From assembly GCA_046706305.1 (NCBI GenBank), contig JBJKPQ010000188.1:3202-67201 (forward strand): a stretch of 64,000 nucleotides of DNA, written 5' to 3'. This document shows positions 1 through 62,984 of the stretch, piece after piece (the stretch's first letter is position 1; every line of letters begins with the position of its first letter). The position numbers were made by a program, and so were the translations under genes. The stretch is from Bacteroidales bacterium. GTDB lineage: Bacteria > Bacteroidota > Bacteroidia > Bacteroidales > VadinHA17. The notes below the pieces were generated by a model. The model did no database searches, was not told the origin of the DNA, and saw nothing but the letters and a program-made list of their open reading frames with translations.

Positions 1-2144
1 TACTTAAGGAGTTTTCTATAAATCACCTGATGGGACTGACTCCGCTGATACCGGGAGGTGAACCCCAGACTGAACATTTCACAACAGGCAGTTTCAGACC
101 CTACCTGATCGTGCTTCTTCCTGCACTGGGAGGTCTTCTGGCAGGTTTCCTGATATTCAAATTTGCTCCTGAGGCTGAAGGGCACGGTACTGATGAAGCT
201 ATAAAGGCTTTCCACCGTAAAAGAGGCCTTATAAGGCCGGCAGTCCCCATTGTAAAGTTATTTGCATCAGTTATCTCAATTGGTACGGGTGGCTCGGGAG
301 GTCGTGAGGGTCCTATTGCCCAGATAGGTGCAGGTTTCGGTAGCTTCCTGTCATCGAGGCTCAACCTCGATGTTAAAACAAGGAGATGGCTTCTGGCCGC
401 CGGAATGGGGGCAGGTATTGGCAGTATATTCAGGGCTCCTCTTGCCGGTGCCATTTTTGCTGCGGAAGTTCTTTATTCTTCGGCTGAAGTGGAGGCAGAG
501 GTTCTACTTCCTGCTGCTGTTTCATCAATAATCGCATTTTCAATATATTCATTCAGGTACGGATGGGAACATATACTGACAAATGCCGGTCAACACGGAT
601 TCAATCAGCCAATTGAGCTTATACCCTATACCATAGAAGCTCTTGTCCTGGCATTTGCCGCCCTGATCTTCGTAAAATCTTTTTACGGAGTAAGGAAAGC
701 TTTTACACAATGGAATATTCCGCAGTTCATGAAACCTGTCATTGGCGGTTTATTGACCGGGATAATTGTTCTTACGCTTATCCTTGTTACAGGCGACAGA
801 ACTTACACAATTGATGTAATGGGAGGAGGATACGGAATATTACAGGATATAGTGCAGAACGGGATCAAAAACACAGGCGTAATGATTCTTATTCTGGTAG
901 CTATAGGTAAGATTCTTACCACGTCTTTTACAATAGGATCGGGAGGAAGCGCAGGTGTATTCGGCCCTTCCATGGTTATTGGAGGTACTGTGGGTGCTGC
1001 TTCAGGATACCTTCTGCAGTTCATTTTCCCGGGAATGACTCTCTATCCTTCGACATTTGCAATTGTAGGTATGGCGGGGTTTTTCGCGGCAGCAGCCAAT
1101 ACTCCTATTTCAACCATTATTATGGTAAGCGAGCTTACGGGCAATTATGAACTACTGATGCCAAGTATGTGGGTATGTACCCTTTCATTCCTGGTAGCAA
1201 GAAAATGGAGTATATACCAGAGCCAGGTTCCGGGGAGAATATATTCACAGGCCCACTTTGGAGAGTATGCTCATGACATCTTCCGGACAATAACAGTAAG
1301 GGAAACATATAACAGGCATAAGAATAACATATCGCTCGATGAAAACATGCCCCTGGAAAATATCCTGAAGATCATGAAAGAAACCAAACAAAGGATGTTC
1401 CCTGTTATCAATAAAGAGAAACAGCTTGTCGGTACCTTCTACATAAAAGACCTTCATAATATGCTTCAGCAACCCGATCATAACATAAAAACCGTTTCGG
1501 ACATAATGCAAAGACATATTCTTAAGATAGGTCTTAACGAGACCATAGACAGGGCACAGGAAATTATGTTGCATAACCATGTTGACGAACTCATTGTAAC
1601 GAATGAATTTGAAAATCCGTCTGCTGTACTCGGCATTATTACAACAGCCGATTTGATGAAAGCCTATAACAGGGAAATGAACCGGCTGAAATACGGTAAA
1701 GATAAGCCGGAGGCCCTGCCGGGAGACGAATCACTACTTAAGCAGATAAACCTTAACAAGGTTCTTGAAAGAGGGTTCCTGACCGTGGAGCCGAATGCAA
1801 CCCTGGGTGATCTTGTCAATATCTTTACCCAGGCCAGGCGAAACATTTTCCCTGTCGTCGATAAAGAAGGCCATTACCTGGGGATAGTCTCCCTTAATGA
1901 TATCAGGAAGCTGTTATTTGATACTTCAAAATATGATACCGTAAAGATCGGAGATATAATGGTAACAACTCCCGAGGTAGTTCACATTGAAGACAGGATG
2001 GACCAGGTAATGAACAAGCTGGAAAAGACAAAGACATGGAATCTGCCGGTAATAGATAACCGCCACAGGTACGTGGGAATGGTATCGCAGTCAACCCTGT
2101 TCTATTTTTACCGTAACCAGCTTCTTTACCAGACAGAGACCTGA
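1..2144 (+). CDS. ClC-family chloride channel/antiporter with four C-terminal CBS motifs; 5' end probably lies upstream of the window
   Basis: ClC motifs GHGTDE, GGSGGREGP and GSAGVFGPS sit in a multi-TM N-terminal half, with four CBS-like units in the last ~280 aa. The frame stays open from nt 3 to the listed ATG at 30. The helix that normally precedes the first motif is absent, so the gene is likely cut by the window edge. Confidence 0.85.
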   Translation, partial: LKEFSINHLMGLTPLIPGGEPQTEHFTTGSFRPYLIVLLPALGGLLAGFLIFKFAPEAEGHGTDEAIKAFHRKRGLIRPAVPIVKLFASVISIGTGGSGGREGPIAQIGAGFGSFLSSRLNLDVKTRRWLLAAGMGAGIGSIFRAPLAGAIFAAEVLYSSAEVEAEVLLPAAVSSIIAFSIYSFRYGWEHILTNAGQHGFNQPIELIPYTIEALVLAFAALIFVKSFYGVRKAFTQWNIPQFMKPVIGGLLTGIIVLTLILVTGDRTYTIDVMGGGYGILQDIVQNGIKNTGVMILILVAIGKILTTSFTIGSGGSAGVFGPSMVIGGTVGAASGYLLQFIFPGMTLYPSTFAIVGMAGFFAAAANTPISTIIMVSELTGNYELLMPSMWVCTLSFLVARKWSIYQSQVPGRIYSQAHFGEYAHDIFRTITVRETYNRHKNNISLDENMPLENILKIMKETKQRMFPVINKEKQLVGTFYIKDLHNMLQQPDHNIKTVSDIMQRHILKIGLNETIDRAQEIMLHNHVDELIVTNEFENPSAVLGIITTADLMKAYNREMNRLKYGKDKPEALPGDESLLKQINLNKVLERGFLTVEPNATLGDLVNIFTQARRNIFPVVDKEGHYLGIVSLNDIRKLLFDTSKYDTVKIGDIMVTTPEVVHIEDRMDQVMNKLEKTKTWNLPVIDNRHRYVGMVSQSTLFYFYRNQLLYQTET

Positions 2145-2167
2145 CATATCTGTGTTTTACAGCCGAC

Positions 2168-2725
2168 TCAGTATATAAAAGGTATGATCTTTTTCCTTGT
2201 TGAGCAAAACCTGAAATAATCTTCCCCGAATTCTTTTTTAAGAAGCGCCTCCTCAACACTGATCCTGTAATTAAGGCCGAGGAAGACCGGAACGATTAAT
2301 ATCAAAAAGGATGCAACACTGTTCATTGCCAGTCCCAGCCCTGCCAGAATAAGCAGGAGGCCTGAATAGGAAGGATGCCTGAGGTATTTATACATACCTC
2401 CTGTTTCCAGCTTATGATCCCTGTTTACAACAACATCCACCGTGAACCTGTTCCTGAGTTGAATGATTGACTTCCACCTGATAATTAATCCCGACAGATA
2501 CATTATCATTCCGGCAAGAGCCATTACATAATTTCCCGTAGTGCGGATACTGTAACTGGCAGTGCTGAAACCCACTGTAATACAGCTGATCATAAGAATC
2601 CAGAGTACCAGCAGGGAACCCTTGTCGTCCTTTGTCTTAACTGATACGGATTTTGAATGTCTGAAGATTGTAAGAGCAAGTTCTGATATCCCGAAAAAAA
2701 CCGACAGATATATTAATACATGCAT
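2168..2725 (-). CDS. ICMT/PEMT-family membrane methyltransferase (isoprenylcysteine carboxyl methyltransferase-like)
   Basis: Polytopic membrane protein. C-terminal signature GGMYKYLRHPSYSGLLL ... EEALLKKEFGEDY is typical of the ICMT/phospholipid methyltransferase fold. Confidence 0.75.
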   Translation of the reverse strand: MHVLIYLSVFFGISELALTIFRHSKSVSVKTKDDKGSLLVLWILMISCITVGFSTASYSIRTTGNYVMALAGMIMYLSGLIIRWKSIIQLRNRFTVDVVVNRDHKLETGGMYKYLRHPSYSGLLLILAGLGLAMNSVASFLILIVPVFLGLNYRISVEEALLKKEFGEDYFRFCSTRKKIIPFIY

Positions 2726-2738
2726 AATTAATCAGTTT

Positions 2739-3233
2739 TTAGTTTAATTCTTTCTTAAGATTAACTCTCACGGCCCAGCCGTAAGAGGTTGAAGTTGAAA
2801 TACCTATACCTGTTACTCTATCGCTGAAGCTTTTAAGTGATGACCTGTTCAGTTTTGTATCCACTGTAATAAGAAAATCAGCTTTCCCGTCGCAGTTATA
2901 ATCAATTGAATCCTTAATAACCACGGGGATCGTGCCCTTCCATTCAAGCTGAATAAATCCATCCTTCCTGTCATTTATCAATCCTTTAAAGACCGGTCTT
3001 CTTACTTCGAGTGTACAACAATCATTTACTGATTCATACATTCTTTCACCACCGCTGTAACGTGGATGTATCTTCATAAAAGGCGCCCGTGCAAGTGCCC
3101 CGGAAAGACTGTTAAGACCGGGGAAGAGCATTAATATAATCAACATGCCGGCAAATGCCCATATAATGCCTGCTGTTTTTTTTATCTTCTTCATGAGAAC
3201 AGTTATCTTGTTTTTCATAGTCTTTGAGTGCAT
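2739..3233 (-). CDS. Hypothetical N-terminally membrane-anchored protein with a small extracytoplasmic domain
   Basis: One hydrophobic helix (GIIWAFAGMLIILMLF) is followed by ~120 aa of beta-rich-looking sequence. A single DxNxDGxxD-type motif (DYNCDGKAD) is present. The start ATG overlaps the upstream stop (TAATG). No family recognised. Confidence 0.5.
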   Translation of the reverse strand: MHSKTMKNKITVLMKKIKKTAGIIWAFAGMLIILMLFPGLNSLSGALARAPFMKIHPRYSGGERMYESVNDCCTLEVRRPVFKGLINDRKDGFIQLEWKGTIPVVIKDSIDYNCDGKADFLITVDTKLNRSSLKSFSDRVTGIGISTSTSYGWAVRVNLKKELN

Positions 3234-4387
3234 TATCGAATTATAAGCTTAAAAAGGCTCTGCAGTGTATTGATTATTGATCCGGCTGAAAAGACAGCCA
3301 TGAACAGGAAAGAGACAAAGAGAAATAGGTTCCTCGAGAATTTCTTCATCGTACCGGCAGGTACTCCCTTAATACCGAAATGGATGGCTTTCTTTGAACA
3401 GGCATCCGTACACTTTCCGCATTTACTGCAAAAGACCGATACCCTGCCATTTCGAATATCGTCTGCTGTTATTGCAAACATCGGACAGACATCGACACAT
3501 CTGTAACATTCGTTACATAACTCTTTATCTATCCTGACGGTAAATGGAGTTATACTGTTTGAAAGGCTGTTGATAGCTCCCAGGGGGCAAAGGTAGCTGC
3601 ATTGTGTCCTTTTTTTTGTCATAAGTGGGAGCACAACTACAAGACCGGCAAACAGGCTGAAGAAAATTCCGGCTTTGGTTGCCGATTCTACTGATGTAAC
3701 CTGCTCAAACTCGGTAACTGCCTTAAACGGGCATATCCAGTCGCAATATGTAGGGATAAGTGACAGGGCAGCCGTAATTGCAACCATAAAGAGTACCGAA
3801 AAAGGCATCCACCTCCAGATAATATTTATATTCCTTATATACGGTTTCCTCCGGAAACGTGAAAATGCATCATCCCAGCCACCATAGAAACAACCCCAGC
3901 TACAGAAACCACGCCCCAGCACAAGGGTTGCCAGAGCCCAGAGAATCACCATGGAAGAGATATTTGCAAAACCATTAAGAATGCTGCCGGGGAAAATCAG
4001 GGATTTGGATACGGCTGCCGGTATTATCATCATAGGAATAACCAGGTGGCAAAAAGGTATTTTACATTCAAGTATGTCTGCCTGTGAGAATGACATTGAA
4101 TGTCTTATGGCTATCATATTTTTTATAAGTGAAAATGATAATGTCAGTGCAAAGATCACAAACAACACTACCCTGTACCTGTCTGTCTTTCCGGTATAGT
4201 GCATAAGGAAATAAAGGATGTTTACAAGAAGAAATGCCGTAATAAGGGCAAATGAATAAGATGGGTCTGAAAAATCAGGCCTCCCTCCCGTCATTAGCAT
4301 GAACGTCAGCATAAACATCGGGAATGCATAGAGCAATGATTTGCCGAAGGATTTTTGCATGCCATTTGTTTTTAAAGCTTTATCCAT
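3233..4387 (-). CDS. NapH/MauN-like integral-membrane 4Fe-4S polyferredoxin
   Basis: Several TM helices plus the cysteine motifs CKIPFCH, GRGFCSWGCFYG, CDWICPF and CSYLCPLG. Two classical ferredoxin motifs follow at the C-terminus: CNECYRCVDVCP and CSKCGKCTDACS. Confidence 0.75.
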   Translation of the reverse strand: MDKALKTNGMQKSFGKSLLYAFPMFMLTFMLMTGGRPDFSDPSYSFALITAFLLVNILYFLMHYTGKTDRYRVVLFVIFALTLSFSLIKNMIAIRHSMSFSQADILECKIPFCHLVIPMMIIPAAVSKSLIFPGSILNGFANISSMVILWALATLVLGRGFCSWGCFYGGWDDAFSRFRRKPYIRNINIIWRWMPFSVLFMVAITAALSLIPTYCDWICPFKAVTEFEQVTSVESATKAGIFFSLFAGLVVVLPLMTKKRTQCSYLCPLGAINSLSNSITPFTVRIDKELCNECYRCVDVCPMFAITADDIRNGRVSVFCSKCGKCTDACSKKAIHFGIKGVPAGTMKKFSRNLFLFVSFLFMAVFSAGSIINTLQSLFKLIIR

Positions 4388-5003
4388 TGATTATACCTCC
4401 TATAATATTTGTTATACCTTTTATCATGAATATTATACCTGCCAGCCCTGTCGCCAGGATACCTATCGTCCTGATTACTTCCTTCCCCTTAATTCTCCCT
4501 GCCAGCGGCAGGGGGATGAACCACAGTGAAGAACCTGCAAAAAAAGCTGCAAAAGCCAGGTAGCTGCCTGCCAGAGTTCCCTCAGTCGCGCTCTTTGTGA
4601 GCAGGATAAACAAAGCGGGACAGAATCCGATGCTGTTGACAATTCCCAGCATTACCGGGACAAGTCTCTTCTTATTAATGGCGGCTGTTAACCGGGCCGG
4701 GCATGAAGCCTTTCGTCCCCTGTCAATACTGTAGAGAACAAGCATGACGGCAAAAATCACATAAAGTGAACCGGGAACAATCTTACTCACAACAGGACTG
4801 GTAAACAGGGTACGGCCTGAAAACCAGGCCAGGGTACCCATTAACAGGTAGACAATAAAACGGGTCGCAAGAAAAAGAAGAAGCTCTTTGCCTGATTGCC
4901 TTACCCCGGCTGAGTCAGCCACAAAATAGGGAAACATGACCATTCCACAGGTAACAAGACAGGCAGATCCGGAGCTAAGACCAAGTATGAAAGCATCAGC
5001 CAT
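4380..5003 (-). CDS. DsbD_2 / TauE-SafE-like integral membrane protein with a cysteine pair in TM1
   Basis: About 6 TM helices. The N-terminal GLSSGSACLVTCG motif resembles the G..G..C...CG motif of DsbD_2-type membrane proteins. Further cysteines occur in SCPARL and GFCPALF. Family assignment is by recollection only. Confidence 0.45.
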   Translation of the reverse strand: MADAFILGLSSGSACLVTCGMVMFPYFVADSAGVRQSGKELLLFLATRFIVYLLMGTLAWFSGRTLFTSPVVSKIVPGSLYVIFAVMLVLYSIDRGRKASCPARLTAAINKKRLVPVMLGIVNSIGFCPALFILLTKSATEGTLAGSYLAFAAFFAGSSLWFIPLPLAGRIKGKEVIRTIGILATGLAGIIFMIKGITNIIGGIING

Positions 5004-5019
5004 AATCAGTTTTTGATAA

Positions 5020-5027
5020 CAAAATTA
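5020..5027 (-). promoter_or_regulatory. Bacteroidota -7 promoter box (TAATTTTG on minus strand) for the 5003-2168 operon
   Basis: Plus-strand CAAAATTA is TAATTTTG on the minus strand and matches the TAnnTTTG consensus. It lies 17 nt upstream of the ATG at 5003. Confidence 0.4.
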
Positions 5028-5161
5028 CGGGCGGCCCTATTACGCAGCAAGCTAAATGTGATCAACAAATCATTAATGTGGCGATCTGTTAAAGAGCCGG
5101 GGCAAAATGCTGAAAACAGGGATGAAAGGATATTTTATACCGAGGTACCCCAGGTTTATAT

Positions 5162-5983
5162 TTACCTGATAAGAGCGGAAATCTCTTTTGCCTTGTTTCT
5201 TGATACGGGCACAGGATCATTCTGTGTATTGAGCCTGATCTTCATATTCTGGTTATGACCGGTGATATTTTTTGCATAATCCATATTCACGATATAACAT
5301 TTATGGCACCTTATAAACTTACTGTTTTTCCCTAGCTCTTCCTCAACCGATTTAAGAGTCCCTCTTATGGTTGTTTTGGCTGTGGTACCATCTTTAAATG
5401 TCACTACAGTGACATAATTATCATTAGAAGCCAGGTAAACAATATCACGGGGGTTCATCCTGAGCTCATTTTTCGGATTACCTCCCCTGATAATAACTTC
5501 ATCTTCCCAGTAGTCGGGTTCAATGGAAGCTTCTTTCAGCCTGGTACGATACATCCTGTTAAATGAAACCATATAAGTGAGGGTAACAGGAATAAATCCT
5601 ACCAGTATGGCTGTCCATACCGAATACAAAAGATAAATAAAGGAAAAGGAAAGGCGGAAGATGATTGTAATATAAATGTAATTAACCCCGCCTATGCTCG
5701 ATGCAATGAGGAGGTCCCATAAAAGGTTTTTACCGAAAGTCCACCTGTCATGATTAATCACTGCAGGCTCAATAAGGTATTTAAACAGGAGTAGCATAAA
5801 AGTTGTAAGTACGCCAAAGCCCAGTGTCACAGCCAGAAGAATAAATGTCTTGAGGTTAGCCAGGCCAAAGGGCCTGAATAAAAAGAGGAACAGGAAGATA
5901 AAGAGGCCGAAGACCAGGATTGATGTAATCTTCTCCTTTGGTGTACCTGTCTCCCTGTAGGGTCTTTTTAAAAATCCTGCCAT
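5162..5983 (-). CDS. Membrane-bound LytTR-family DNA-binding protein (no receiver domain)
   Basis: About 4 N-terminal TM helices, then a C-terminal LytTR domain (IVYLASNDNYVTVVT ... FIRCHKCYIVNMDY). Confidence 0.7.
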   Translation of the reverse strand: MAGFLKRPYRETGTPKEKITSILVFGLFIFLFLFLFRPFGLANLKTFILLAVTLGFGVLTTFMLLLFKYLIEPAVINHDRWTFGKNLLWDLLIASSIGGVNYIYITIIFRLSFSFIYLLYSVWTAILVGFIPVTLTYMVSFNRMYRTRLKEASIEPDYWEDEVIIRGGNPKNELRMNPRDIVYLASNDNYVTVVTFKDGTTAKTTIRGTLKSVEEELGKNSKFIRCHKCYIVNMDYAKNITGHNQNMKIRLNTQNDPVPVSRNKAKEISALIR

Positions 5984-6000
5984 ATCAGATTAGTTACAGG

Positions 6001-6008
6001 CAAAGCTA
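6001..6008 (-). promoter_or_regulatory. Candidate -7 promoter box (TAGCTTTG on minus strand) for the LytTR gene
   Basis: Plus-strand CAAAGCTA is TAGCTTTG on the minus strand (TAnnTTTG). It lies 18 nt upstream of the ATG at 5983. Confidence 0.35.
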
Positions 6009-6036
6009 TATAATATTTTGAAATCTGGTATGAGGT

Positions 6037-7599
6037 TCAGCCGGAACCTTTCATCAGCCTTGCCACAGCTTCGGCACTCCTTGTTCCGTCGACAGCTGAT
6101 GATACAATACCTCCTGCATAACCTGATCCCTCACCGCACGGATATAATCCTTTTATGCTTATATGCTCCATAGTAACAGCATCCCTGGGTATACGCAATG
6201 GTGAAGAGGTACGCGATTCCACACCCAGAACAACAGCATCATTGGTAAGAAAGCCATGCATCATTTTTCCAAACAGGGTGAATCCGGTTCGCAGGCGGTC
6301 ACTTATACCACGAGGCAGCCATTCACTGATCTGAGAAGGTGTTGCACCGGGGAAATAAGATAAGGGAGGCAGAGATGAAGATTGCTTTCCCGAAATGAAA
6401 TCCATAAGCCTCTGAGCCGGTGCTTTTTGAGTCATTCCCCCGTTTATCCAGGCCCTGTGTTCTATATCCGCCTGGTATTCAAGACCTGCAAACACACCTG
6501 CTCTGTTATAAGCAGCCAGGTCGTCCGGTTTTATCTCCACCACAATACCGGAATTGGCGTAAGGCGAATTCCTTCCGGAAGGAGACATTCCATTTACAAC
6601 AACCTCCTCCTGACTGGTGGCGGAGGGGACGATAAATCCACCCGGACACATGCAAAAAGAATAAACTCCCCTGCCGTCGACCTGTTTCACCAGGCTATAA
6701 GAAGCGGCAGGCAGGAACTCTCCCCTGGCCGATCCGTGATATTGAATCATATCTATGAGTTCCTGGGGATGTTCAACCCTTACTCCCATGGCAAAGGATT
6801 TCATCTCCAGTACTATATTGCGCGAACGGCAAATATTGTAAATATCCCGTGCAGAATGGCCGCTTGCCAGGATAACAAAGTCCGATCTGATAATTTCATT
6901 ACCTGCTGTAGCAACACCCCTCACAGAGTTGCCTTCAATAAGAATGTCGGTCACCCTTTTACCAAGCAGAAAAATTCCTCCGGCGTCAACGATAGATTTT
7001 CTAATACTGGAAATGATACGCGGCAGCCTGTCTGTTCCAAGATGTGGATGAGCTTCATAAAGTATGTTCGAATCTGCGCCATGGTAACGCAGCAGCTCCA
7101 GAACCCTCGTATTGTCACCCCTTTTTTTTGACCTGGTATACAGCTTACCGTCGGAATAGGTACCGGCTCCTCCTTCGCCGAAACAATAGTTGCTGTCGGG
7201 GTCGACAACATGCTCACGGCTTATCCTGGCAATATCTCTTTTCCTGGCAGAAACATCCCGTCCTCTTTCAATTATTACCGGGCGCAAGCCCAGCTCGATA
7301 AGCCGGAGAGCGGCGAAAAGACCTGCTGGTCCGGCCCCAACTATTATCACTTCCCGGGCAGTGCCGACATCCAATGGTTGGAAAGGAAGGGGTGCAGATA
7401 TTACCGGGTCGGTGTCGTCATAAACTTCAACACTCAGGTTAATACGTATATTCTTTTTACGTGCATCGACAGATTTTCTTATAATTCTGACAACACTGAT
7501 ACTGTGCTCATCGATACCTGAAAGCCGTGCTGCCTCCCGGCGTACAAGCGATTCGTCGGCAGCAGCAGACGGACTCAGATTTAACTGAACCTGTTTCAT
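6037..7599 (-). CDS. FAD-dependent oxidoreductase (uncharacterised FAD-dependent dehydrogenase family)
   Basis: Dinucleotide-binding motif VIIVGAGPAGLFAALRL. Typical length and a C-terminal GEGSGYAGGI motif. Confidence 0.75.
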   Translation of the reverse strand: MKQVQLNLSPSAAADESLVRREAARLSGIDEHSISVVRIIRKSVDARKKNIRINLSVEVYDDTDPVISAPLPFQPLDVGTAREVIIVGAGPAGLFAALRLIELGLRPVIIERGRDVSARKRDIARISREHVVDPDSNYCFGEGGAGTYSDGKLYTRSKKRGDNTRVLELLRYHGADSNILYEAHPHLGTDRLPRIISSIRKSIVDAGGIFLLGKRVTDILIEGNSVRGVATAGNEIIRSDFVILASGHSARDIYNICRSRNIVLEMKSFAMGVRVEHPQELIDMIQYHGSARGEFLPAASYSLVKQVDGRGVYSFCMCPGGFIVPSATSQEEVVVNGMSPSGRNSPYANSGIVVEIKPDDLAAYNRAGVFAGLEYQADIEHRAWINGGMTQKAPAQRLMDFISGKQSSSLPPLSYFPGATPSQISEWLPRGISDRLRTGFTLFGKMMHGFLTNDAVVLGVESRTSSPLRIPRDAVTMEHISIKGLYPCGEGSGYAGGIVSSAVDGTRSAEAVARLMKGSG

Positions 7600-7605
7600 A
7601 AAATC

Positions 7606-8352
7606 CTATTCAAAATAGAAAGAAAGGACCCAAATCTGGGATTTGATTTTCTCGATGGCATTATAAAATTCCGAATGACCCGGAGCTGCCTGCTTGACAA
7701 GTATGTCGGAGAGCCCGTTGGACATTTTTACTTCGACCGACATCTTAAAATACGGGAGATAGAAATCCAGCCCGGCTCCCATCTCATAATAAAGGTCAGG
7801 ACGCTTGATTCGTATATAGACCGGCTTTGTATCATCGAATTCCTTCTTCCCGGCAAGGTCATACCTGTAATTAAGCCCGGTAATCACGTATGGCCTTATG
7901 TTGTTAAGCCTCTCTCCCTTAAACTTGAGAAGAAGGGGAAATTCGAGATATGACGATTCAAGCTTTTGCTGATCATTGTAAAGTACACCATTCTTGTAAT
8001 AACGTATTACCCTCTGACCGAAAGAGACACCCGGCAGAAACCTTATGTCAAGGAACCTGGCCGGCCTCAGATCAGTCACAATTTGTATGTTTATACCCGG
8101 GTTAAGCTTACTTACTTCAGGATAGAGTGAATCAGTCCTTAGGTAAGTCTGCGATGGAGTTATTTTATAATCCATTGTATTAAATCCCAGGCTGAATCCG
8201 AAATGAAGGACCTTTTCATCATACCATGAAGAGTTCTTAGGCTTCTGTTTCTGGGCATAAGCGCCAAGATGGATAAGCAGAAAGACAGAAACTAGGGCTA
8301 TATGAAGGTTCCTGGTTCTCAAAGAAGGTTTACGTTTATGGTTAAGTGCCAC
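7606..8352 (-). CDS. porT: PorT/SprT-like outer-membrane beta-barrel protein (T9SS-associated family)
   Basis: Signal peptide, alternating beta-strand pattern and an aromatic C-terminus (LSFYFE). It sits immediately downstream of ubiE, a synteny I recall for porT/sprT in Bacteroidota. A generic OMP_b-brl family is the alternative. Confidence 0.5.
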   Translation of the reverse strand: MALNHKRKPSLRTRNLHIALVSVFLLIHLGAYAQKQKPKNSSWYDEKVLHFGFSLGFNTMDYKITPSQTYLRTDSLYPEVSKLNPGINIQIVTDLRPARFLDIRFLPGVSFGQRVIRYYKNGVLYNDQQKLESSYLEFPLLLKFKGERLNNIRPYVITGLNYRYDLAGKKEFDDTKPVYIRIKRPDLYYEMGAGLDFYLPYFKMSVEVKMSNGLSDILVKQAAPGHSEFYNAIEKIKSQIWVLSFYFE

Positions 8353-8379
8353 AAGATAATAAACTGTATTGACAAATAA

Positions 8380-9114
8380 TTATTGCATTTCCTTTTTAAT
8401 ACCGGTATAAATACTGGCTATACCTCCGGTCAGTCTCACCTGGCCGGTATCATTATAACCGGCTTTTTCCATGATCTCAAGGAATATCTTATTCTCGGGA
8501 AACTGCATCACCGATTCCGGGAGGTACTTATATGCCGAGTGGTCCTTTGAGAATAACTTTCCAAAAAAGGGGAGTATACGGAGAAAATAGAAGTTATAGA
8601 TATGCCTGAACGGAAAGCCCGACGGTTTGGAGAATTCAAGGACAAGTACCATGCCACCGGGACGCAATACCCTGAACATCTCTTCCAGTCCCTTAAGCGG
8701 ATCAGCAAAATTTCTTACACCGAAAGCCACCATGGCCACATCAAACATATTATCCTTAAAAGGAATATTTTCCGAATCGGCCTGGACAAGCTCAATGCTT
8801 TCCGAAAGACCTTTCTTCCTTATCTTTTCCCTGCCTATCTCCAGCATGTTGGCCGAGATATCAATGCCTGTTATCTTTCCGGGAGACAGTCTCATGGCTG
8901 TTATTGCAAGATCTGCAGTGCCGGTGGCAACATCCAGGATACGTGGCTTACTGTACCTTGCCCCGATCATTTTAATTGCTTTCCTGCGCCATCTCCTGTC
9001 GATGCTGAAAGAAAGAAAATGATTAAGAAAATCATATCTCCAGGCTATGGAATCAAACATGTTCTCCACAACCGCTTTCTTATCTTTCTTTTGATTTTCC
9101 TGGTTACCTGCCAT
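8380..9114 (-). CDS. ubiE: Demethylmenaquinone / ubiquinone-menaquinone C-methyltransferase UbiE/MenG
   Basis: MFDSIAWRYDFLNH signature and SAM motif ILDVATGTADLA. The start is moved to MAGNQEN (9114) because a -7 box lies at 9128-9135 and the 22-aa extension is Cys-rich junk. Confidence 0.9.
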   Translation of the reverse strand: MAGNQENQKKDKKAVVENMFDSIAWRYDFLNHFLSFSIDRRWRRKAIKMIGARYSKPRILDVATGTADLAITAMRLSPGKITGIDISANMLEIGREKIRKKGLSESIELVQADSENIPFKDNMFDVAMVAFGVRNFADPLKGLEEMFRVLRPGGMVLVLEFSKPSGFPFRHIYNFYFLRILPFFGKLFSKDHSAYKYLPESVMQFPENKIFLEIMEKAGYNDTGQVRLTGGIASIYTGIKKEMQ

Positions 9115-9127
9115 ATAATTGAAAATG

Positions 9128-9135
9128 CAAATATA
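9128..9135 (-). promoter_or_regulatory. Candidate -7 promoter box (TATATTTG on minus strand) for ubiE-porT-FAD oxidoreductase
   Basis: Plus-strand CAAATATA is TATATTTG on the minus strand. It lies 14 nt upstream of the ATG at 9114. Confidence 0.4.
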
Positions 9136-9225
9136 GCATGTAAGGACGTCGCATGCAACGTCCATGCAACCATCGGTCAATATATTTTCTTATTTTTACA
9201 TCTTTAATTAAACTATCGGACAAAC

Positions 9226-17927: not shown

Positions 17928-19994
17928 TTATTTAATTGTCCCGGCCAGTTCATCATATTTCCTGGCTATATCCGGGTCGGTTTTTCTGTAAGTATCAGCC
18001 AGTGCCTTAATTGCCGGCTTATACCGTGGATTCATATCGAGGCATGTCATTAATAATTTCCTCGCTTTACTGGCATTATCATCCATTAGTAATCCGGCCA
18101 GGCTGACATATGCTTCAAAATATTTACGGTTCGCCCTGATCAGCCTCTCGTAATACCTGATAGCTTCATCATCTTTTTTCTGCCACTTTGCGATATTACC
18201 AAGGTACATCAGAATCGGCTCAAAATCAGGATTAATTTCAAGTCCTTTTTTCAAAACCGAATCAGCTTTTTCACATTGTCCGTCATTACAAAGAGCCGCC
18301 GCAAAATTAAAAAAAATCATTTCATCAGTGTCATCATTTTTTAAAGCATTTTCAAAATGCTCAATAGCCTCCTTGTTTTCTCCCTTATTCAGAGCAACAT
18401 AACCAAAGTAATCCTCTTTCGATTTTCTCTTAAGCACGGCACAAACGGGAACAGTGTCGACATAGATTACCTTAATGGCATCCGGAGGCGGATAATAATG
18501 ATGCCTCAGCTTATATGGGGAAATATACCTGTTTACAACAATAGCATAATCCCAGTCAAATTCACTGCGTTCATCATAGCGGAAATATGAAGTCTCTATA
18601 TTGGGATGTTTCCTGAACTGCCAGACCACAGAATATGTTGCTTTTACTTTGATCTTTCCTGTATCATTATTTTCCTCCAGGTATTTTATGAGCCATTTGG
18701 AAGCCTCTGTCTGACTCACATAGTAATAATCCATTTCATAGTTGGTGTATGCGCCGTCAACTCCTCCTTCAAGGATATTATAATACATATATTCATAAGG
18801 GTGATTGGATATCATATACCGCAGGGGTGGATAGGAAAACATGACCATCAATAAAACCATCCCCCACCTGAGGTACCTGTTTCTAACACTTATAAAAAAA
18901 TAATAATAGCCCATTCCTGAAAGAAGTACAATGGCAGGATACAGGAACAGAAACTGCCGCCAGGAACTGTAGAGGTTTGATTTCTCATAAACAACGAACA
19001 GCATCGGGAACAGTATCGTGAACAGCACGGCAAGAAATAAAAAGATCCTGTTGCCTCTGATTATTTTGCCGAAAAACGTGCACAACAGAACCAACCCCGC
19101 AAGAACGATAACAGGTATTGTTATACCCATCGATTTGGGCAGGTAATACCAAGGCATAAAATCAGACCATTCCTCCTTTCCATCAAATATCTGCCTGAAA
19201 GTATCAGGGAAATGTGCCATTACCCTGTACGATTCGATAACATTCCTGACTGGGCTCTGCAAGGCATAAGGCCACAGAATGATGCTCAGCAGCCAGGCAA
19301 CCACAATTATGGCAGTAATCCACCCGAAGCCGGAAGCAAGCTCCTTTAAATCGGACTGATTTTTCTTGATGTAACCATAAAAATGGTACAGACCCCAGAA
19401 AAACAGGAGGTAGCATATCAAAATGAAACCACCAGCCCTGATGCTCATTGCACCGGCAATACCAAGGGTCAGAAATATTATGTCCACCGGGTACTTTTTC
19501 CTTCCGGAGGACAGAAATTTAAGAGTAAAAAATGTTGCTGTTATGTATCCCAGCGCAAAAGGGACATCTTTAAGGTTATTCTGTGAATGCCCTATGAATG
19601 TAGGCGAAAGAGCAAACAGGATGAGTACTGTTATCCCGGCCCGCCAATCGGCCAGCCATACGGCAAACAGTGCAGTAACAAGCATAGTAAGCCATCCTGC
19701 CACGGAGTTCATCTCGTGCCTGAATCTGTAGACATCGTCAATACCGAACCATTTTGTCAGGATTGTAACGATATTGTCGAAAGCCTGGCCATAATATTTC
19801 AGATGAGTCCCCGGCGTGTTAAGAGCTGAACGGTCGGTTCCATGCGTGGCAAAATAATCATATACAGCTACCGACTGGTTATAATGCAATACCTCATCAC
19901 ACGAGATACCTGCATCTCTGCTTGTAACCACCAGGGCAACAAGTATGAATACAGAAATGATAAAGAAGATATATTTCAGCCCTTTTTCTTTCAT
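17928..19994 (-). CDS. GT-C fold glycosyltransferase (PMT/ArnT, GT39/GT83-like) with C-terminal TPR domain
   Basis: About 12 TM helices. A DE motif lies directly after TM1 (ISCDEVLHY), as in PMT/ArnT loop 1. The C-terminal ~170 aa are TPR-like repeats (ALNKGENKEAIEHFENALKND ... YLGNIAKWQKKDDEAIRYYERLI ...). Confidence 0.75.
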   Translation of the reverse strand: MKEKGLKYIFFIISVFILVALVVTSRDAGISCDEVLHYNQSVAVYDYFATHGTDRSALNTPGTHLKYYGQAFDNIVTILTKWFGIDDVYRFRHEMNSVAGWLTMLVTALFAVWLADWRAGITVLILFALSPTFIGHSQNNLKDVPFALGYITATFFTLKFLSSGRKKYPVDIIFLTLGIAGAMSIRAGGFILICYLLFFWGLYHFYGYIKKNQSDLKELASGFGWITAIIVVAWLLSIILWPYALQSPVRNVIESYRVMAHFPDTFRQIFDGKEEWSDFMPWYYLPKSMGITIPVIVLAGLVLLCTFFGKIIRGNRIFLFLAVLFTILFPMLFVVYEKSNLYSSWRQFLFLYPAIVLLSGMGYYYFFISVRNRYLRWGMVLLMVMFSYPPLRYMISNHPYEYMYYNILEGGVDGAYTNYEMDYYYVSQTEASKWLIKYLEENNDTGKIKVKATYSVVWQFRKHPNIETSYFRYDERSEFDWDYAIVVNRYISPYKLRHHYYPPPDAIKVIYVDTVPVCAVLKRKSKEDYFGYVALNKGENKEAIEHFENALKNDDTDEMIFFNFAAALCNDGQCEKADSVLKKGLEINPDFEPILMYLGNIAKWQKKDDEAIRYYERLIRANRKYFEAYVSLAGLLMDDNASKARKLLMTCLDMNPRYKPAIKALADTYRKTDPDIARKYDELAGTIK

Positions 19995-20923
19995 GGGTCC
20001 TGATAGTCGTCATCGTAGTATTCATTTATAAAATAAACCGGACGATTCTGCGATTCTTTATAGTTCCTGTAGATATATTCCCCAAGGATACCAAGGAAAA
20101 CAAGTTGAATGGACCCGAGGAAATATATGCTAAGAAGGGTTGATGACCATCCCGGTATTGCGAATCCGTATACTTTAGCAACGAGTACATATATCCCAGC
20201 AGCGAAAAACACAAGAGTACCCAGGGAGCCAAGGATCAGGCATAAACGTATGGGAAACCTGGAGAATGAAAAGATGGCATCGGCAGCCAGTATAAACAGT
20301 TTACGAATACTCATTTTAGGGTCGCCTCTGAAGCGGTCTTCTCTAACGAACTCCACATAACCCTGCCTGAATCCTATAAACGTCCTTAATCCGGGCAGAT
20401 ACCTCACCTTTTCTTTCATAGACAGTAAAGCATCAACCGCTTTCCGCTTCATCATGGAATAATTGCCATAGTTTTCCATATGCTTAATATCACCAATATT
20501 CCTGAAAAGCAGGTGAAACATGACAGCATATGCATTTCTTCCTCTTTTACCCTTTCTGCCTGTTTTCTTGCCGCTTACTATATCATAATCCTCTTTGAGT
20601 ATCTTATCATACATCTCCGACAGAAGCTCGGGCGGATCCTGCAGGTCACCATCCATCATTGCCACTATATCACCTTTCGCATGCTCAAGCCCGGCTGTAT
20701 AGGCTGCCTGGTGTCCAAAGTTTTTGGAAAGCGTTAATATTTTTATTCTTTTATCTGATTTATGCCATTTCAGCAGTTTTTCAAGACTGTTATCAGTGCT
20801 GCCGTCATCAACAATAATAACTTCATAGTCAACGACAAAAGACTCAATGGCTTCTTTAGTTCTTTGCACAAGCTCATCGATAAGGCTTTCTTCGTTGAAT
20901 ACAGGAATAACAAGTGACAGCAT
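19991..20923 (-). CDS. GT2 polyprenyl-phosphate glycosyltransferase (ArnC/GtrB/Dpm1-like)
   Basis: VIPVFNEE ... IIVDDGSTDNS ... DGDLQDPPE motifs plus two C-terminal TM helices. A 4-nt overlap (ATGA) joins it to the downstream GT-C gene. Confidence 0.85.
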   Translation of the reverse strand: MLSLVIPVFNEESLIDELVQRTKEAIESFVVDYEVIIVDDGSTDNSLEKLLKWHKSDKRIKILTLSKNFGHQAAYTAGLEHAKGDIVAMMDGDLQDPPELLSEMYDKILKEDYDIVSGKKTGRKGKRGRNAYAVMFHLLFRNIGDIKHMENYGNYSMMKRKAVDALLSMKEKVRYLPGLRTFIGFRQGYVEFVREDRFRGDPKMSIRKLFILAADAIFSFSRFPIRLCLILGSLGTLVFFAAGIYVLVAKVYGFAIPGWSSTLLSIYFLGSIQLVFLGILGEYIYRNYKESQNRPVYFINEYYDDDYQDP

Positions 20924-20943
20924 AATTATTGCTATTTCCGGGG

Positions 20944-21879
20944 TTAATCATGTAAATTCCCTGTTTCCGCAGGACCTTTCACATTGAATCGTGGTCTTAG
21001 AACAGCTTTATCAGCTGTTGGAAAGTCATCCGGCACCCTTTGTGTTACCCGGCCCGTCGCAGCCCATTCTGCCCCTCTCCTGAAAGTTGTAATGAAACCC
21101 GTACACTGCATGGCGGGGCCTCCGCCATCTTCGGCATGTCCCATTGTTGTATGAAATATACGCCCTTTTCCGTAGGTAACAGTCATGAGAACAGGCTCGT
21201 CTCTCATGGTACCTCCGCCGGCAGCACTATCGGCGAATGCCGTGGCAAGTATCTGAAGGTTCTTTGCCGGTCCTCTCAGCTGGCTGTACAGTTCATCTGT
21301 ACCATGAAGCCATTCCGCCGGCAGTCCCTTCATGACGGGATGTTCGGGCATCCTTGCCTTAACAAGGAACTCTCTCCTGGCCCCGTGAGATCCTCCTGTC
21401 CCGGGGCTTGTATCGGTCATCAGCACATCATTCTTATAATATACATATGGCCCGTCTTTTTCATTACGGTCACCCCACCCTCCAAGTCCGGTCATCTCGT
21501 TATATTCTTTCCAGCCTGGAAAGGAGTTGTCGGCGGCATGATAAATTACCAGTCCTCCCCCGTTCCTTACAAAATCCACAAAGGCCGATTTTGTTTTTTC
21601 CGGCCATGGGTCACCATTATAATCCATAACAATGAGCCTGTACTTTGAAAAGTCGGGACAGAAACCGCTCATATCACTATCCTGAGGAGGTGTTAATATG
21701 ATGTCGCATGAGAAAATACCTGTCTCGTCAAGAATAGTTTTCAGTACAGGAGAGCTTGCCTGCCAGTTATGATTATTCTGTCCGGTTATAATAAGAGTCT
21801 TATATACGGACTCGTGTCTGCAGGCAGAGAACAGAATCATCAATCCTGTCATCAATAAAAGATACCTTTTTTTCATCAT
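20944..21879 (-). CDS. ThuA-domain (trehalose-utilisation-like) lipoprotein
   Basis: Start moved to MMKKRYLLL (21879) to remove the overlap with the upstream gene. Lipobox LFSAC. ThuA-like motifs GGGLVIYHAADNSF, HPVMKGLP, DELY and GKGRIFHTTMGH. Confidence 0.75.
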   Translation of the reverse strand: MMKKRYLLLMTGLMILFSACRHESVYKTLIITGQNNHNWQASSPVLKTILDETGIFSCDIILTPPQDSDMSGFCPDFSKYRLIVMDYNGDPWPEKTKSAFVDFVRNGGGLVIYHAADNSFPGWKEYNEMTGLGGWGDRNEKDGPYVYYKNDVLMTDTSPGTGGSHGARREFLVKARMPEHPVMKGLPAEWLHGTDELYSQLRGPAKNLQILATAFADSAAGGGTMRDEPVLMTVTYGKGRIFHTTMGHAEDGGGPAMQCTGFITTFRRGAEWAATGRVTQRVPDDFPTADKAVLRPRFNVKGPAETGNLHD

Positions 21880-21919
21880 TCCTGAGTTTATAATTCTGAT
21901 ACCTGCAAAAAAAGAACTA

Positions 21920-23257
21920 TCAAAGAGGCGTTGGAGTACCGGGAATTGGAGTCTTAAATTCCATATCCACCGGGCCGAACTCAAACTTTTTCGGTCCCAG
22001 ATCCATATCCGATTTAAACATCTCATCCCATGTTATCAGCTTTCCCGTATAGGCGGCTGTTCTTCCCATAATGGCAGTAAGTGTTGAGATGGCTGTTGTC
22101 TCAGCTTCATTTACATAGTTACCTGTACGTATGGCATATACCAGATGCATGTGTTCCTGCACATAAGGAGGTATTTTAAGAGTGTTCATAGGGTTACCGT
22201 TTTCATCCCTGGGGTATTCAAACTTCCATTTAACCTTGCCGTCAAGGTCCCAGATAGTGTTTATGCAGTTTGTATATCCCTCGGTACCATAAATAAGCTC
22301 TCCTGTTCCGTTGGCACAGCTGTCTATCTGGCGGCACATACTGTGCGAACTGATACCATTTCCATAGTCAAAGTCGATGCTGAAGAAATCATACTGGTCG
22401 CCTGTGATCCTTCTTGCCCTGCCTCCATAGCCTATTGCTCTTTCCGGGTGTTTGCCCATGAACCAGTTTATTACATCGATATTGTGAACATGAGTGTCAA
22501 GGATAAAATCACCACCAAGCCAGCAGAAATTATTCCAGTCGCGTATCATGTATGTCATATCATCCCATCCGGGTTCTCTCAGGCGGAACCATACATGATC
22601 CTGGTTCCAGAAAGCTTTGGCTGAGGTAAGCCGGCCTATGGCACCCCCCATTATTTGTTTATATGTCTCAATGTAGTCTTCCCGGTGACGGCGCTGTGTT
22701 CCTGTTACGACATTCAGGCCAAGGGCCTCTGCTTTTTTTGCAGTTGTTATTATTGATCTTATTCCAACAGGATCTACGGCCATTGGTTTTTCCATGAAGA
22801 CGTGCTTATGCATTGTAACAGCTTCCAGGAAATGATCGGGCCGGAATTTACATGGAGTGGCAAGTATGACAACATCAATGTCTGGTAATGCAATCAGCTT
22901 TTTATATGCATCAAAGCCGACAAAGCAGTTTTCTTCTGGTATGGGAAGATTAAAAGATGCAAACCTGTCGCGGCATATGTCAATCTTGTCCTGGAAAACA
23001 TCAGCAAGAGCTATAATTTCAAGATCCGGTCCGGCACTTATAAAATTGATAGCTGCACCTGTACCCCGCGCTCCGGCACCAACAAGGCCGGCACGCAGCT
23101 TTTTCCCCGGAGGTGCTCCGTGTAATATTGGAGGTAAACCAAGCTCTTTATTATCAGGTGTTCTTTTACATGACGACAATAAAGACCCTGCACTGGCAAG
23201 CCCGATACCGGCCAATGCTGTTTTTCCTATAAAATTTCTTCTGTTAAGATTATGCAT
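21920..23257 (-). CDS. TAT-signal Gfo/Idh/MocA-family oxidoreductase (probable periplasmic lipoprotein)
   Basis: The twin-arginine motif NRRNFIGKTALAG is followed by the lipobox LLSSC. Rossmann motif GLVGAGARG, EKPM motif (FMEKPMA), and a Gfo/Idh/MocA C-terminal domain. Confidence 0.85.
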   Translation of the reverse strand: MHNLNRRNFIGKTALAGIGLASAGSLLSSCKRTPDNKELGLPPILHGAPPGKKLRAGLVGAGARGTGAAINFISAGPDLEIIALADVFQDKIDICRDRFASFNLPIPEENCFVGFDAYKKLIALPDIDVVILATPCKFRPDHFLEAVTMHKHVFMEKPMAVDPVGIRSIITTAKKAEALGLNVVTGTQRRHREDYIETYKQIMGGAIGRLTSAKAFWNQDHVWFRLREPGWDDMTYMIRDWNNFCWLGGDFILDTHVHNIDVINWFMGKHPERAIGYGGRARRITGDQYDFFSIDFDYGNGISSHSMCRQIDSCANGTGELIYGTEGYTNCINTIWDLDGKVKWKFEYPRDENGNPMNTLKIPPYVQEHMHLVYAIRTGNYVNEAETTAISTLTAIMGRTAAYTGKLITWDEMFKSDMDLGPKKFEFGPVDMEFKTPIPGTPTPL

Positions 23258-23282
23258 ATTCCTGTTGTTATTATATTATTTA

Positions 23283-49692: not shown

Positions 49693-49729
49693 ATTTAACC
49701 GATAAAAGGCACAAAGATAAATAAAAAAA

Positions 49730-49826
49730 GGGTAAGCTACTTATATCGCACCGCTACAACCGCCTACCCTTGCTATCTTCCGATCCTGGGGGAGTTCAGC
49801 AGGAGCTGGTCGTTTAAGACTTACCC
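49730..49826 (-). ncRNA. ffs: Small (4.5S-type) signal recognition particle RNA
   Basis: The minus strand reads GGGUAAGUCUUAAAC...CCCCCAGGAUCGGAAGAUAGCAAGGGUAGG...GUAGCUUACCC followed by UUUUUUU. The conserved helix-8 features are present: AGG, a GGAA tetraloop closed by C-G, and an AGCA 3' motif. The 5' and 3' ends pair (GGGUAAG/CUUACCC). Confidence 0.8.
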
Positions 49827-49830
49827 TTTG

Positions 49831-49838
49831 CAAAAATA
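49831..49838 (-). promoter_or_regulatory. -7 box TATTTTTG (minus strand) for the SRP RNA
   Basis: Plus-strand CAAAAATA is TATTTTTG on the minus strand. This places the predicted TSS about 5 nt downstream, at the first G of the RNA (49826). Confidence 0.5.
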
Positions 49839-62591: not shown

Positions 62592-62984
62592 GGGGCTGAC
62601 CTGGTTTTGACAGCATGAGAGGTGGTATGTAAGCATGCAGTGTGTGGTGACACGTCACTTATACAGGGTCACAAACAATTAACTGGCGAATCTAATTTTG
62701 CTCTCGCTGCTTAAGCGAATAAAGTAACCTAAGCTTTATCCCGGCTCATGAGTCGGGACGAGACGTCTCCCGGGCGGTTCTGCCCTGATCCAACCCGATA
62801 AGGAGGCGCACGGAATCCGGGGCTAGTCGGAGGGATGTTCCTGCCCAAAGGCGAAAACAACAGGAAATAAGGACAGGTTAGGTTGTTCTGCAGCTGACCG
62901 GTCACGAAAAACAAGCAGGACTAAGCATGTAGAAAGCATATGGTCTCCTTGTTTGGACGCGGGTTCGACTCCCGCCAGCTCCAC
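62592..62984 (+). ncRNA. ssrA: Transfer-messenger RNA (tmRNA)
   Basis: The 5' GGGGCUGACCUGGUUUUGACAGC and 3' GGACGCGGGUUCGACUCCCGCCAGCUCCACC form the tRNA-Ala-like acceptor/T-arm. An internal tag frame is present. Confidence 0.9.
62684..62713 (+). other. tmRNA tag-peptide reading frame GESNFALAA-stop
   Basis: GGC GAA TCT AAT TTT GCT CTC GCT GCT TAA, read directly from the sequence. It ends in the canonical ALAA degradation signal. Confidence 0.8.

Follow-up and report, generated by a model that had tools for sequence, protein, structure and literature searches.

A LytTR-linked membrane redox operon of Bacteroidales with a conserved triad of a DsbD_2 protein, a polyferredoxin and an anchored beta-sandwich protein

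The window analysed here, a 64,000-nucleotide stretch of the 82-kb contig JBJKPQ010000188.1 from a Bacteroidales bacterium, harbors on its minus strand a membrane redox operon that has no described function and is built from known types of parts. Four genes encode, in order of transcription, a DsbD_2-family protein, a polyferredoxin, an anchored protein and a methyltransferase, and a LytTR gene lies directly upstream. From the comparison of related loci, the conserved unit is the triad of DsbD_2 protein, polyferredoxin and anchored protein and not the set of four, and it is highly probable that the locus is made of this triad as a core, of LytTR control and of the methyltransferase as an accessory. 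The features of the locus, in window coordinates and amino acids (aa), are the following.

2168-2725, minus strand: ICMT/PEMT-family membrane methyltransferase, 185 aa (Pfam PEMT 61.3 bits, ICMT 55.9 bits)
2739-3194, minus strand: anchored protein that crosses the membrane once (N-in) and has an eight-strand beta-sandwich on the outside (AlphaFold2 model and hydropathy; longest reading frame to 3233)
3233-4387, minus strand: membrane polyferredoxin of the NapH/MauN/CcoG superfamily, 384 aa (Pfam Fer4_5 and di-cluster Fer4 families)
4380-5003, minus strand: DsbD_2-family protein, 207 aa, six transmembrane (TM) helices (Pfam DsbD_2)
5020-5051, minus strand: Bacteroidetes-type promoter, -33 element CTTG at 5051-5048 and -7 element TAATTTTG at 5027-5020 (alignment of 14 regions)
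5054-5082, minus strand: proximal direct-repeat pair, GCCACATTA at 5082-5074 and ATCACATTT at 5062-5054, 20-nucleotide (nt) period (conserved alignment columns)
5099-5127, minus strand: distal direct-repeat pair, TTTCATCCC at 5127-5119 and TTTTGCCCC at 5107-5099, 20-nt period (conserved alignment columns)
5162-5983, minus strand: membrane-anchored LytTR DNA-binding protein, 273 aa (Pfam LytTR 69.4 bits against a cutoff of 22.6)

A preliminary description of this DNA had proposed a co-directional, partly overlapping membrane operon of a DsbD_2 protein, a NapH-like polyferredoxin, an anchored protein and an ICMT/PEMT methyltransferase, and this holds. The four open reading frames (ORFs) were found on the minus strand at 4380-5003, 3233-4387, 2739-3233 (164 aa, the longest ORF for the third gene) and 2168-2725. 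The DsbD_2 stop and the polyferredoxin start overlap by 8 nt at 4380-4387 as described, and overlaps of -8, -4 or -7 nt are seen repeatedly at this junction in relatives, distant lineages included. The 13-nt gap between the third gene and the ICMT gene is likewise present. The 1-nt TAATG overlap at 3233 exists but is probably not the actual start of the third gene. Its likely start is the ATG at 3194, which gives a 38-nt gap after the polyferredoxin gene, because homologues are typically 148 aa long and begin with MKKI(K/R), and because the closest relative, L004, has no in-frame start further upstream. All four products are predicted membrane proteins by hydropathy and the motifs ACLVTCG, RHPSYSG, DYNCDGKAD and two CxxCxxCxxxC(P/S) were all recovered. 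Scans with profile hidden Markov models (HMMs) confirmed DsbD_2, Fer4_5/Fer4 and PEMT plus ICMT, whereas the third protein matched no family in Pfam or NCBIfam. Homologues of the polyferredoxin number 1360 in 90% clusters and 3410 in 50% representatives, 95 of the latter at E <= 1e-30; those of the third protein number 352. Because of these numbers, the genes are judged to be far beyond chance ORFs.

To follow the operon in other genomes, we collected 160 loci, of which 80 came from species-representative genomes searched with an alignment of diverse polyferredoxins, and 80 from metagenomes searched with a narrower, more distant sub-alignment. The five window proteins were mapped onto all ORFs of these loci by phmmer and HMMs, and counts were limited to scorable loci, that is, those with sufficient flanking sequence. 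The DsbD_2 gene lies immediately upstream of the polyferredoxin gene in 131 of 137 loci, and a homologue of the third protein is encoded immediately downstream in 143 of 147. The loci span at least four phyla (Bacteroidota, Acidobacteriota, Syntrophales/Deltaproteobacteria and Verrucomicrobiota). The nearest relatives of the window are Bacteroidales metagenome-assembled genomes (MAGs), and carriers at about 50% polyferredoxin identity include, besides Bacteroidales, MAGs labelled Acidobacteriota, Syntrophales, Syntrophorhabdaceae, Deltaproteobacteria and Puniceicoccales. The carriers are MAGs of anaerobes from peat, sediment, digesters and rumen. A tblastn search of plasmids was nearly empty, with four weak matches for the polyferredoxin and none for the DsbD_2 protein, and therefore gives no link to resistance islands.

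The methyltransferase has a different distribution. Of 139 scorable loci, 31 have an ICMT-like gene after the triad, and all 31 belong to the Bacteroidales lineage of the window, where the gene lies directly downstream on the same strand; it was found in none of the 62 scorable metagenomic loci and is missing in many close relatives whose polyferredoxin is 70-76% identical to that of the window. The preliminary description had considered the methyltransferase an integral partner in a four-protein complex, and had made co-conservation of the genes elsewhere decisive. Co-conservation fails for the ICMT gene but extends across phyla for the other three. The RHPSY and EE..L...FG..Y cofactor motifs are intact in 28 of 28 copies, which form two main identity classes (about 72% identity within the class of the window, 48% between classes). 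Since the gene is restricted to one lineage and absent from close relatives, yet keeps its cofactor motifs, its product is a selected but dispensable accessory rather than a core subunit. The enzyme misses every equivalog cutoff, with 66.9 against 160 bits for isoprenylcysteine methyltransferase, 29.4 against 325 for LmtA and 18.4 against 270 for MddA; its closest solved structure is 4A2N (E 1.7e-8). The gene is probably co-transcribed with the triad. A terminator-like hairpin of 10 pairs (6 G-C) with a weak T tail was observed at 2765-2787 on the minus strand, within the 3' end of the third gene and about 40 nt before the ICMT start; eight such sites were found against 3.8 expected. This hairpin could be an attenuator of read-through into the methyltransferase gene, or could be due to chance.

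The first protein of the triad matches Pfam DsbD_2 (PF13386) over residues 4-189 of 207, with 55.4 bits against a cutoff of 24.9. All of 22 diverse orthologues match DsbD_2 and none of the 22 matches TauE, while the DsbD_TM profile (PF02683) is reached weakly by two (best E 5.8e-4), so that membership in the DsbD/CcdA profile family is not established. A weak match to the PpoB2 copper-chaperone membrane family was observed in six of the 22 (E >= 0.035). Four cysteines are invariant in these orthologues: C15 and C19 in TM1 (CxxxCGP), C101 in a K/R-rich loop, and C128, followed by proline, in TM4 (CPP). C15, C19 and C128 thus provide the TM1 and TM4 cysteines that are expected of DsbD/CcdA proteins. 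A search of the PDB with the DsbD_2 profile returned nothing meaningful. A literature search on PF13386 or DsbD_2 returned nothing relevant, the papers on "DsbD2" dealing with an unrelated gene name, and one on ccoG together with TauE returned nothing usable.

The polyferredoxin has additional helices at its N-terminus and a helix at its C-terminus; it also carries three CX3C motifs and, on a K/R-rich domain, two [4Fe-4S] motifs. The preliminary description had counted four CxxxC motifs in it. Three are indeed CX3C, namely C162/C166, C215/C219 and C263/C267, of which the last two continue with proline (CX3CP), but the fourth is a CX4CH pair (C108/C113) of which C113 alone is conserved. In 41 sequences with identities down to 24%, thirteen cysteines are invariant or nearly so: C113, the three CX3C pairs and the eight [4Fe-4S] cysteines. 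The [4Fe-4S] motifs C291-C301 and C320-C330, together with the two CX3CP, correspond to the motif set of NapH. NapH (NF007013) and NapH/MauN (TIGR02163) are the best NCBIfam matches (E 6.6e-20 and 2.5e-19), although both family cutoffs are missed (71.4 against 234 bits and 69.8 against 213 bits). No FixG_C domain was matched, and the C-terminus is a helix. The ferredoxin domain is probably on the cytoplasmic side, because by hydropathy it is located in a K/R-rich loop between helices. When the polyferredoxin alignment was used in a profile search of the PDB, ferredoxin domains alone matched. A member of the 90% cluster of this protein is annotated merely as "4Fe-4S binding protein".

The third protein was modelled with AlphaFold2 (pLDDT 87) as a long N-terminal helix followed by an eight-strand beta-sandwich; a K/R-rich N-terminus precedes the helix in the hydropathy profile. 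Foldseek found nothing significant in the PDB, the top match being a CBM9 carbohydrate-binding module (E 0.022), and none of 24 orthologues matched Glucodextran_C (PF09985) directly in Pfam at E <= 1. In a sister clade of loci, the third-gene products are larger (370-800 aa), and in them an N-terminal helix leads into a Glucodextran_C domain (up to 129 bits) and TPR repeats. Alignment of the two families with hhalign gave a probability of 98.2% and an E of 4.7e-14, and both share the motifs P-x-Y-[ST]-G-G-[ED], P-V and Q. Because of this profile-profile match, the third protein amounts to a Glucodextran_C-like domain of minimal size carried by a signal anchor. The residues conserved in it are YSGGE, PV, Q82, R143 and the acidic loop D98-x-N-x-D-x3-D106.

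The LytTR gene and the repeats next to it provide a connection to regulation that was absent from the preliminary description. The LytTR domain occupies residues 175-272 and hydrophobic helices were seen by hydropathy in the N-terminal half. Among the 75 genome loci scored, 42 have a LytTR gene directly upstream of the DsbD_2 gene, including the Puniceicoccales locus L071. The -7 box was located at 5027-5020 as previously described, 16 nt upstream of the DsbD_2 ATG at 5003, and both it and the -33 CTTG are positionally conserved in 14 orthologous upstream regions. By itself, the TANNTTTG pattern is no more frequent in the window than expected (53 against 57), so that the evidence for this promoter is conservation and not motif count. 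Scans with sigma-70 and terminator consensus sequences were uninformative.

Each of the four repeats is 9 bp long, and the proximal pair ends 2 nt upstream of the -33 element. The CAC cores of both proximal repeats are invariant in the 14 orthologous regions. The pattern YCACWWWW-N12-YCACWWWW occurs once in the window against 0.11 expected, and it also has a single occurrence, at the equivalent position, in 27 related loci. A relaxed form of it was found in 36 of 42 LytTR-positive loci but only in 1 of 33 LytTR-negative ones, and in none of 7 closely related LytTR-less loci. The distal pair is present in 30 of the 42 LytTR-positive loci and in none of the 33 others. As the repeats occur almost solely where the LytTR gene is present, the LytTR protein is the likely regulator of the operon, and the proximal pair is a candidate LytTR operator. 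A second TAnnTTTG box, TAGCTTTG, was observed at 6001-6008 on the minus strand, 18 nt before position 5983, where the LytTR gene starts. Because of this box, a separate promoter is probable for the LytTR gene; the proximal repeat pattern does not recur there.

The loci of the sister clade (L084-L124) carry a complete or partial extended operon with the following order.

Sister-clade order: PadR regulator, membrane protein, POTRA protein of about 440 aa, secreted TPR-like protein of about 200 aa, DsbD_2, polyferredoxin, TM-Glucodextran_C-TPR protein, LytTR, DUF3021

The PadR regulator frequently precedes this operon, and for the extra genes g3, g6 and g8 neither the window nor the close clade gave a homologue. 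The POTRA and TPR-like genes upstream of the triad are hints of an envelope-directed role. Downstream of the triad lie genes for a 145-aa LytTR protein and a DUF3021 membrane protein, a pair that has the layout of a published LytTR regulatory system (PMC6193735). LytTR control is thus a recurrent feature of the triad, as indicated by this pair and by the upstream LytTR gene of Puniceicoccales. A census of 150 flanking proteins from outside the close Bacteroidales clade gave 121 Pfam families, without enrichment for thioredoxin-fold, metal-handling, cytochrome or reductase families.

These observations are best explained as a whole, in our view, by a LytTR-controlled triad that combines a CcoG-like reductase with a translocator, an explanation that we hold tentatively and at somewhat less than even probability. 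The LytTR protein would bind the two repeat pairs at 5054-5127 and control the -33/-7 promoter at 5020-5051. Electrons from a cytoplasmic or quinol donor would reach the two cytoplasm-side [4Fe-4S] clusters and then the CX3CP sites at the membrane interface, where they would reduce a thiophilic substrate, the best candidate being the ion of a soft metal or a metalloid. The cysteine-lined DsbD_2 partner might carry this substrate, or reducing equivalents, across the membrane. The anchored beta-sandwich may serve for docking or envelope contact, as the periplasmic Ig-like domain may do in CcoG, and the methyltransferase would be an optional 3' add-on that may modify the product or a lipid, the module working without it. 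The analogy is to CcoG, in layout the closest relative with known biochemistry. CcoG reduces Cu(II); it contains two [4Fe-4S] clusters, two Cu sites and, at the C-terminus, a periplasmic Ig-like domain whose function is unknown (PMC7558416). The analogy is backed by the modular use of NapH-like proteins for trans-membrane electron transfer (PMC8238504), by the weak PpoB2 matches of six DsbD_2 orthologues and by the lack of a thioredoxin-fold partner among 150 neighbouring proteins, and the module is self-contained. Taken separately, the core of this proposal, a CcoG-like Fe-S reductase coupled to a cysteine-lined DsbD_2 translocator for a thiophilic substrate, is possible but on the doubtful side.

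Several points weigh against this explanation. The CcoG profile (TIGR02745) gives the polyferredoxin 24.1 bits against a cutoff of 316.7, over residues 291-333 (the ferredoxin motif) only, and the AlphaFold2 model of this protein, built with 30 close homologues at least 74% identical, has a mean pLDDT of 47. The third protein bears no sequence similarity to the Ig-like domain of CcoG (no Pfam match at E <= 1). It has no conserved Cys, His or Met in the orthologue alignment either, which makes it an improbable redox or soft-metal site. Among the 150 proteins and 121 families of the census, none that is conserved near the triad is a metal chaperone, a metal sensor, a P-type ATPase or a reductase. 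The TM1/TM4 cysteine layout of the DsbD_2 protein suits a thiol-disulfide relay equally well. The putative binding of the LytTR protein to the repeats is deduced from their co-occurrence alone. Finally, all carriers are uncultured MAGs and hence come with no phenotypes.

The relay just mentioned would be ferredoxin-driven: the polyferredoxin, with its [4Fe-4S] clusters and CX3C(P) cysteines, would replace thioredoxin as reductant of the TM1/TM4 cysteines in the DsbD_2 protein, and the latter would pass reducing equivalents to extracytoplasmic disulfides or oxidised envelope components, in a DsbD/CcdA-like manner suited to anaerobes. [4Fe-4S]-assisted disulfide reduction is established chemistry, known from ferredoxin:thioredoxin reductase and HdrB. 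The consistent DsbD_2 matches, two of them extending weakly to DsbD_TM, and the invariant TM1/TM4 cysteines beside prolines as in CcdA/DsbD, together with the invariant cytoplasmic-loop cysteine, are in line with such a relay; the tight overlap of the DsbD_2 and polyferredoxin genes suggests a 1:1 complex, and the envelope-type regulators LytTR and PadR would fit a stress-protective role. However, a periplasmic acceptor that has a thioredoxin fold or contains Cys was found neither in the 160 loci nor in their surroundings, the sole conserved outward-facing protein has no conserved cysteine, and TM1 carries a CxxxC pair where CcdA has a single cysteine. The lack of a thioredoxin-fold partner among the 150 neighbours argues against a classical DsbD/CcdA pathway. 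We consider the relay unlikely, although it is the main rival. In the four-protein complex of the preliminary description, the ICMT/PEMT enzyme would methylate a lipid-soluble or envelope substrate once it is reduced. In the window, the ICMT gene lies only 13 nt downstream of the triad without a promoter box of its own, it is always immediately downstream on the same strand in the 31 loci that have it, and the intact S-adenosylmethionine-binding motifs point to selection. The complex is nevertheless very unlikely, as 108 of 139 loci lack the gene, including the close relatives noted above, and the triad must therefore be functional without it. The gene never accompanies the triad outside one Bacteroidales lineage, nor in the metagenomic loci, and our literature search found no link between polyferredoxins and ICMT-type enzymes.

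A respiratory role would make the polyferredoxin a NapH-type quinol dehydrogenase that passes electrons from menaquinol to a periplasmic terminal reductase, like NapGH, NosR and PceC. The best profile matches and the annotation of homologues as NapH by JGI agree with this, as does the presence of a UbiE/MenG-type methyltransferase in a conserved Bacteroidales synteny block; NapH-like proteins are modular trans-membrane electron-transfer units used with many oxidoreductases (PMC8238504). But scores are far under the family cutoffs, and no FMN-bind domain, NapG-like ferredoxin, cytochrome or reductase is encoded in or next to the module in any clade; neither napA/napG nor another periplasmic reductase was found beside it in the window or in related loci. 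The sole outward-facing partner has no cofactor-binding residues. We give this role little credence. The preliminary description had itself pointed to a maturation cluster of the ccoG type for cbb3 oxidase, with oxidase genes nearby, as a described system into which the genes might resolve. The polyferredoxin does belong to the CcoG superfamily, and CcoG too pairs a membrane polyferredoxin with an outward beta-sandwich. Yet the CcoG score is 24 against 317 bits and covers the ferredoxin motif only, no haem-copper oxidase or P-type ATPase is encoded among the ten largest ORFs of the window or by the neighbours in related loci, and the carriers are anaerobe MAGs. With its score far below the cutoff and no cco genes linked, the cbb3/cco cluster was rejected; this or any other described system is extremely improbable as the identity of the operon. 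The preliminary description had likewise recognised no described system here, which agrees with the scores for NapH (71 against 234 bits) and CcoG.

The triad could also be read more broadly, as a new class of envelope-directed redox system that would serve anaerobes without cytochromes or flavins, a speculation that we rate as quite unlikely. The cytoplasmic Fe-S clusters would then feed a cysteine relay made of the CX3C(P) motifs and of the DsbD_2 TM1/TM4 cysteines. This relay would target a thiophilic substrate at the outer face, where the carbohydrate-binding-type beta-sandwich would position the complex at the envelope. The sister clade would possess a trans-envelope set, with the POTRA protein (probably at the outer membrane), the secreted TPR-like protein and the anchored Glucodextran_C and TPR protein. 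In one Bacteroidales lineage, the ICMT-type enzyme might methylate the product of this reduction, such as a chalcogenide or thiol.

Other features were observed around the triad and elsewhere in the window. A Bacteroidales synteny block at 6037-9180 on the minus strand, upstream of the LytTR gene, is conserved and encodes the UbiE/MenG-type methyltransferase, an OMP_b-brl_2 outer-membrane protein and a 520-aa flavin adenine dinucleotide (FAD)-dependent protein (PF21688); in LytTR-less relatives, the gene for the FAD protein is directly before the DsbD_2 gene. In L064 (5875-7320, minus strand; MAG label "Proteobacteria bacterium") and L072 (476-1921, minus strand; Syntrophorhabdaceae), a divergently oriented gene for the selenocysteine synthase SelA is adjacent to the DsbD_2 gene, at 5-9 nt from its start, and a radical SAM gene follows the triad in L072. 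In one Bacteroidales clade (L059, L060, L062, L063, L066 and L076, about 500-7350), the triad comes directly after a run of genes, the last of which is separated from the DsbD_2 gene by -4 to 8 nt. In L066 this run comprises an NrtR-like regulator, an SSF symporter, a GH94 cellobiose phosphorylase and a GH9 cellulase, and the other loci share part or all of it. Further heterogeneous neighbours are an Rrf2 regulator and a PALP enzyme. The leads from SelA, Rrf2, PALP, radical SAM and GH94/GH9 are too sparse to build on. Elsewhere in the window, a 511-aa ORF at 23283-24818 on the minus strand combines an N-terminal NapC/NirT tetrahaem cytochrome c region (PF03264, 88 bits) with an FGE-sulfatase domain (PF03781, 149 bits), an unusual combination; it belongs to a minus-strand run at 17928-24818 that also encodes a 688-aa TPR protein. 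A transfer-messenger RNA gene was found at 62592-62986 on the plus strand (140 bits) and a Bacteroidales small signal recognition particle RNA at 49726-49833 on the minus strand (99 bits).

Polyferredoxins of the NapH/CcoG type and DsbD_2 proteins are abundant and are mostly annotated as "4Fe-4S binding protein" or "sulfite exporter TauE/SafE". The triad offers a concrete, testable unit among them, with translational coupling, a candidate regulator and operator, and a distribution over several anaerobe phyla, and its carriers are frequently met in metagenomes of peat, sediment, digesters and rumen. Its conservation also corrects the impression that the methyltransferase is a core member. If the triad were a metal or metalloid reductase-translocator or a disulfide relay, this would explain a supply of envelope reducing power or reduced metals in strict anaerobes that are without the classical partners.

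The triad shares features with several known systems. CcoG (FixG/RdxA) and the shorter YccM are also membrane polyferredoxins with two [4Fe-4S] motifs, CX3CP motifs and an Fe-S domain on the cytoplasmic side, and a non-respiratory role is a further likeness. In CcoG, the ferredoxin domain is followed by a helix and then by an outward beta-sandwich of unknown function, which in the triad is a separate gene product. The polyferredoxin of the triad differs from CcoG by three extra N-terminal helices and a conserved TGKxDRYR / PFCH signature; the beta-sandwich is Glucodextran_C-like and not FixG_C, DsbD_2 is always present, cco genes are lacking and the hosts are anaerobes. With NapH, MauN, NosR and PceC, the triad has in common the Fer4_5 membrane core with CX3C(P), the di-cluster ferredoxin domain and the best profile matches. 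Unlike NapH-like systems, it comes with no FMN-bind, ApbE, NapG or linked reductase or oxidase, and neither of its partners, the DsbD_2 protein or the anchored Glucodextran_C-like protein, is a described partner of NapH-like proteins. The DsbD_2 protein resembles the DsbD/CcdA carriers of the LysE superfamily by its six helices, its TM1/TM4 cysteines beside prolines and its Pfam clan, whereas it departs from them by the CxxxC pair in TM1, the extra invariant cysteine in the cytoplasmic loop, an Fe-S partner and the lack of a thioredoxin-like donor or acceptor.

The methyltransferase has the fold family and the RHPxY and EE..L...FG..Y motifs of the ICMT family (Ma-ICMT 4A2N, Ste14, PEMT, MddA and LmtA), and is ICMT-like in its length of about 185 aa and its predicted TM helices; it stands apart by scoring under every equivalog cutoff and by its lineage-specific link to the triad. 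The LytTR protein of the window recalls the LytTR systems HdrRM and BrsRM of Streptococcus mutans and those with a DUF3021/DUF2154 inhibitor, in which a LytTR domain is coupled to a membrane moiety and direct repeats lie just upstream of the upstream element of the promoter, and the sister clade has the canonical LytTR and DUF3021 pair. Unlike HdrRM and BrsRM, the protein of the window unites the membrane moiety and the LytTR domain in one chain, and its putative targets are the genes of a redox module rather than bacteriocin or competence genes.

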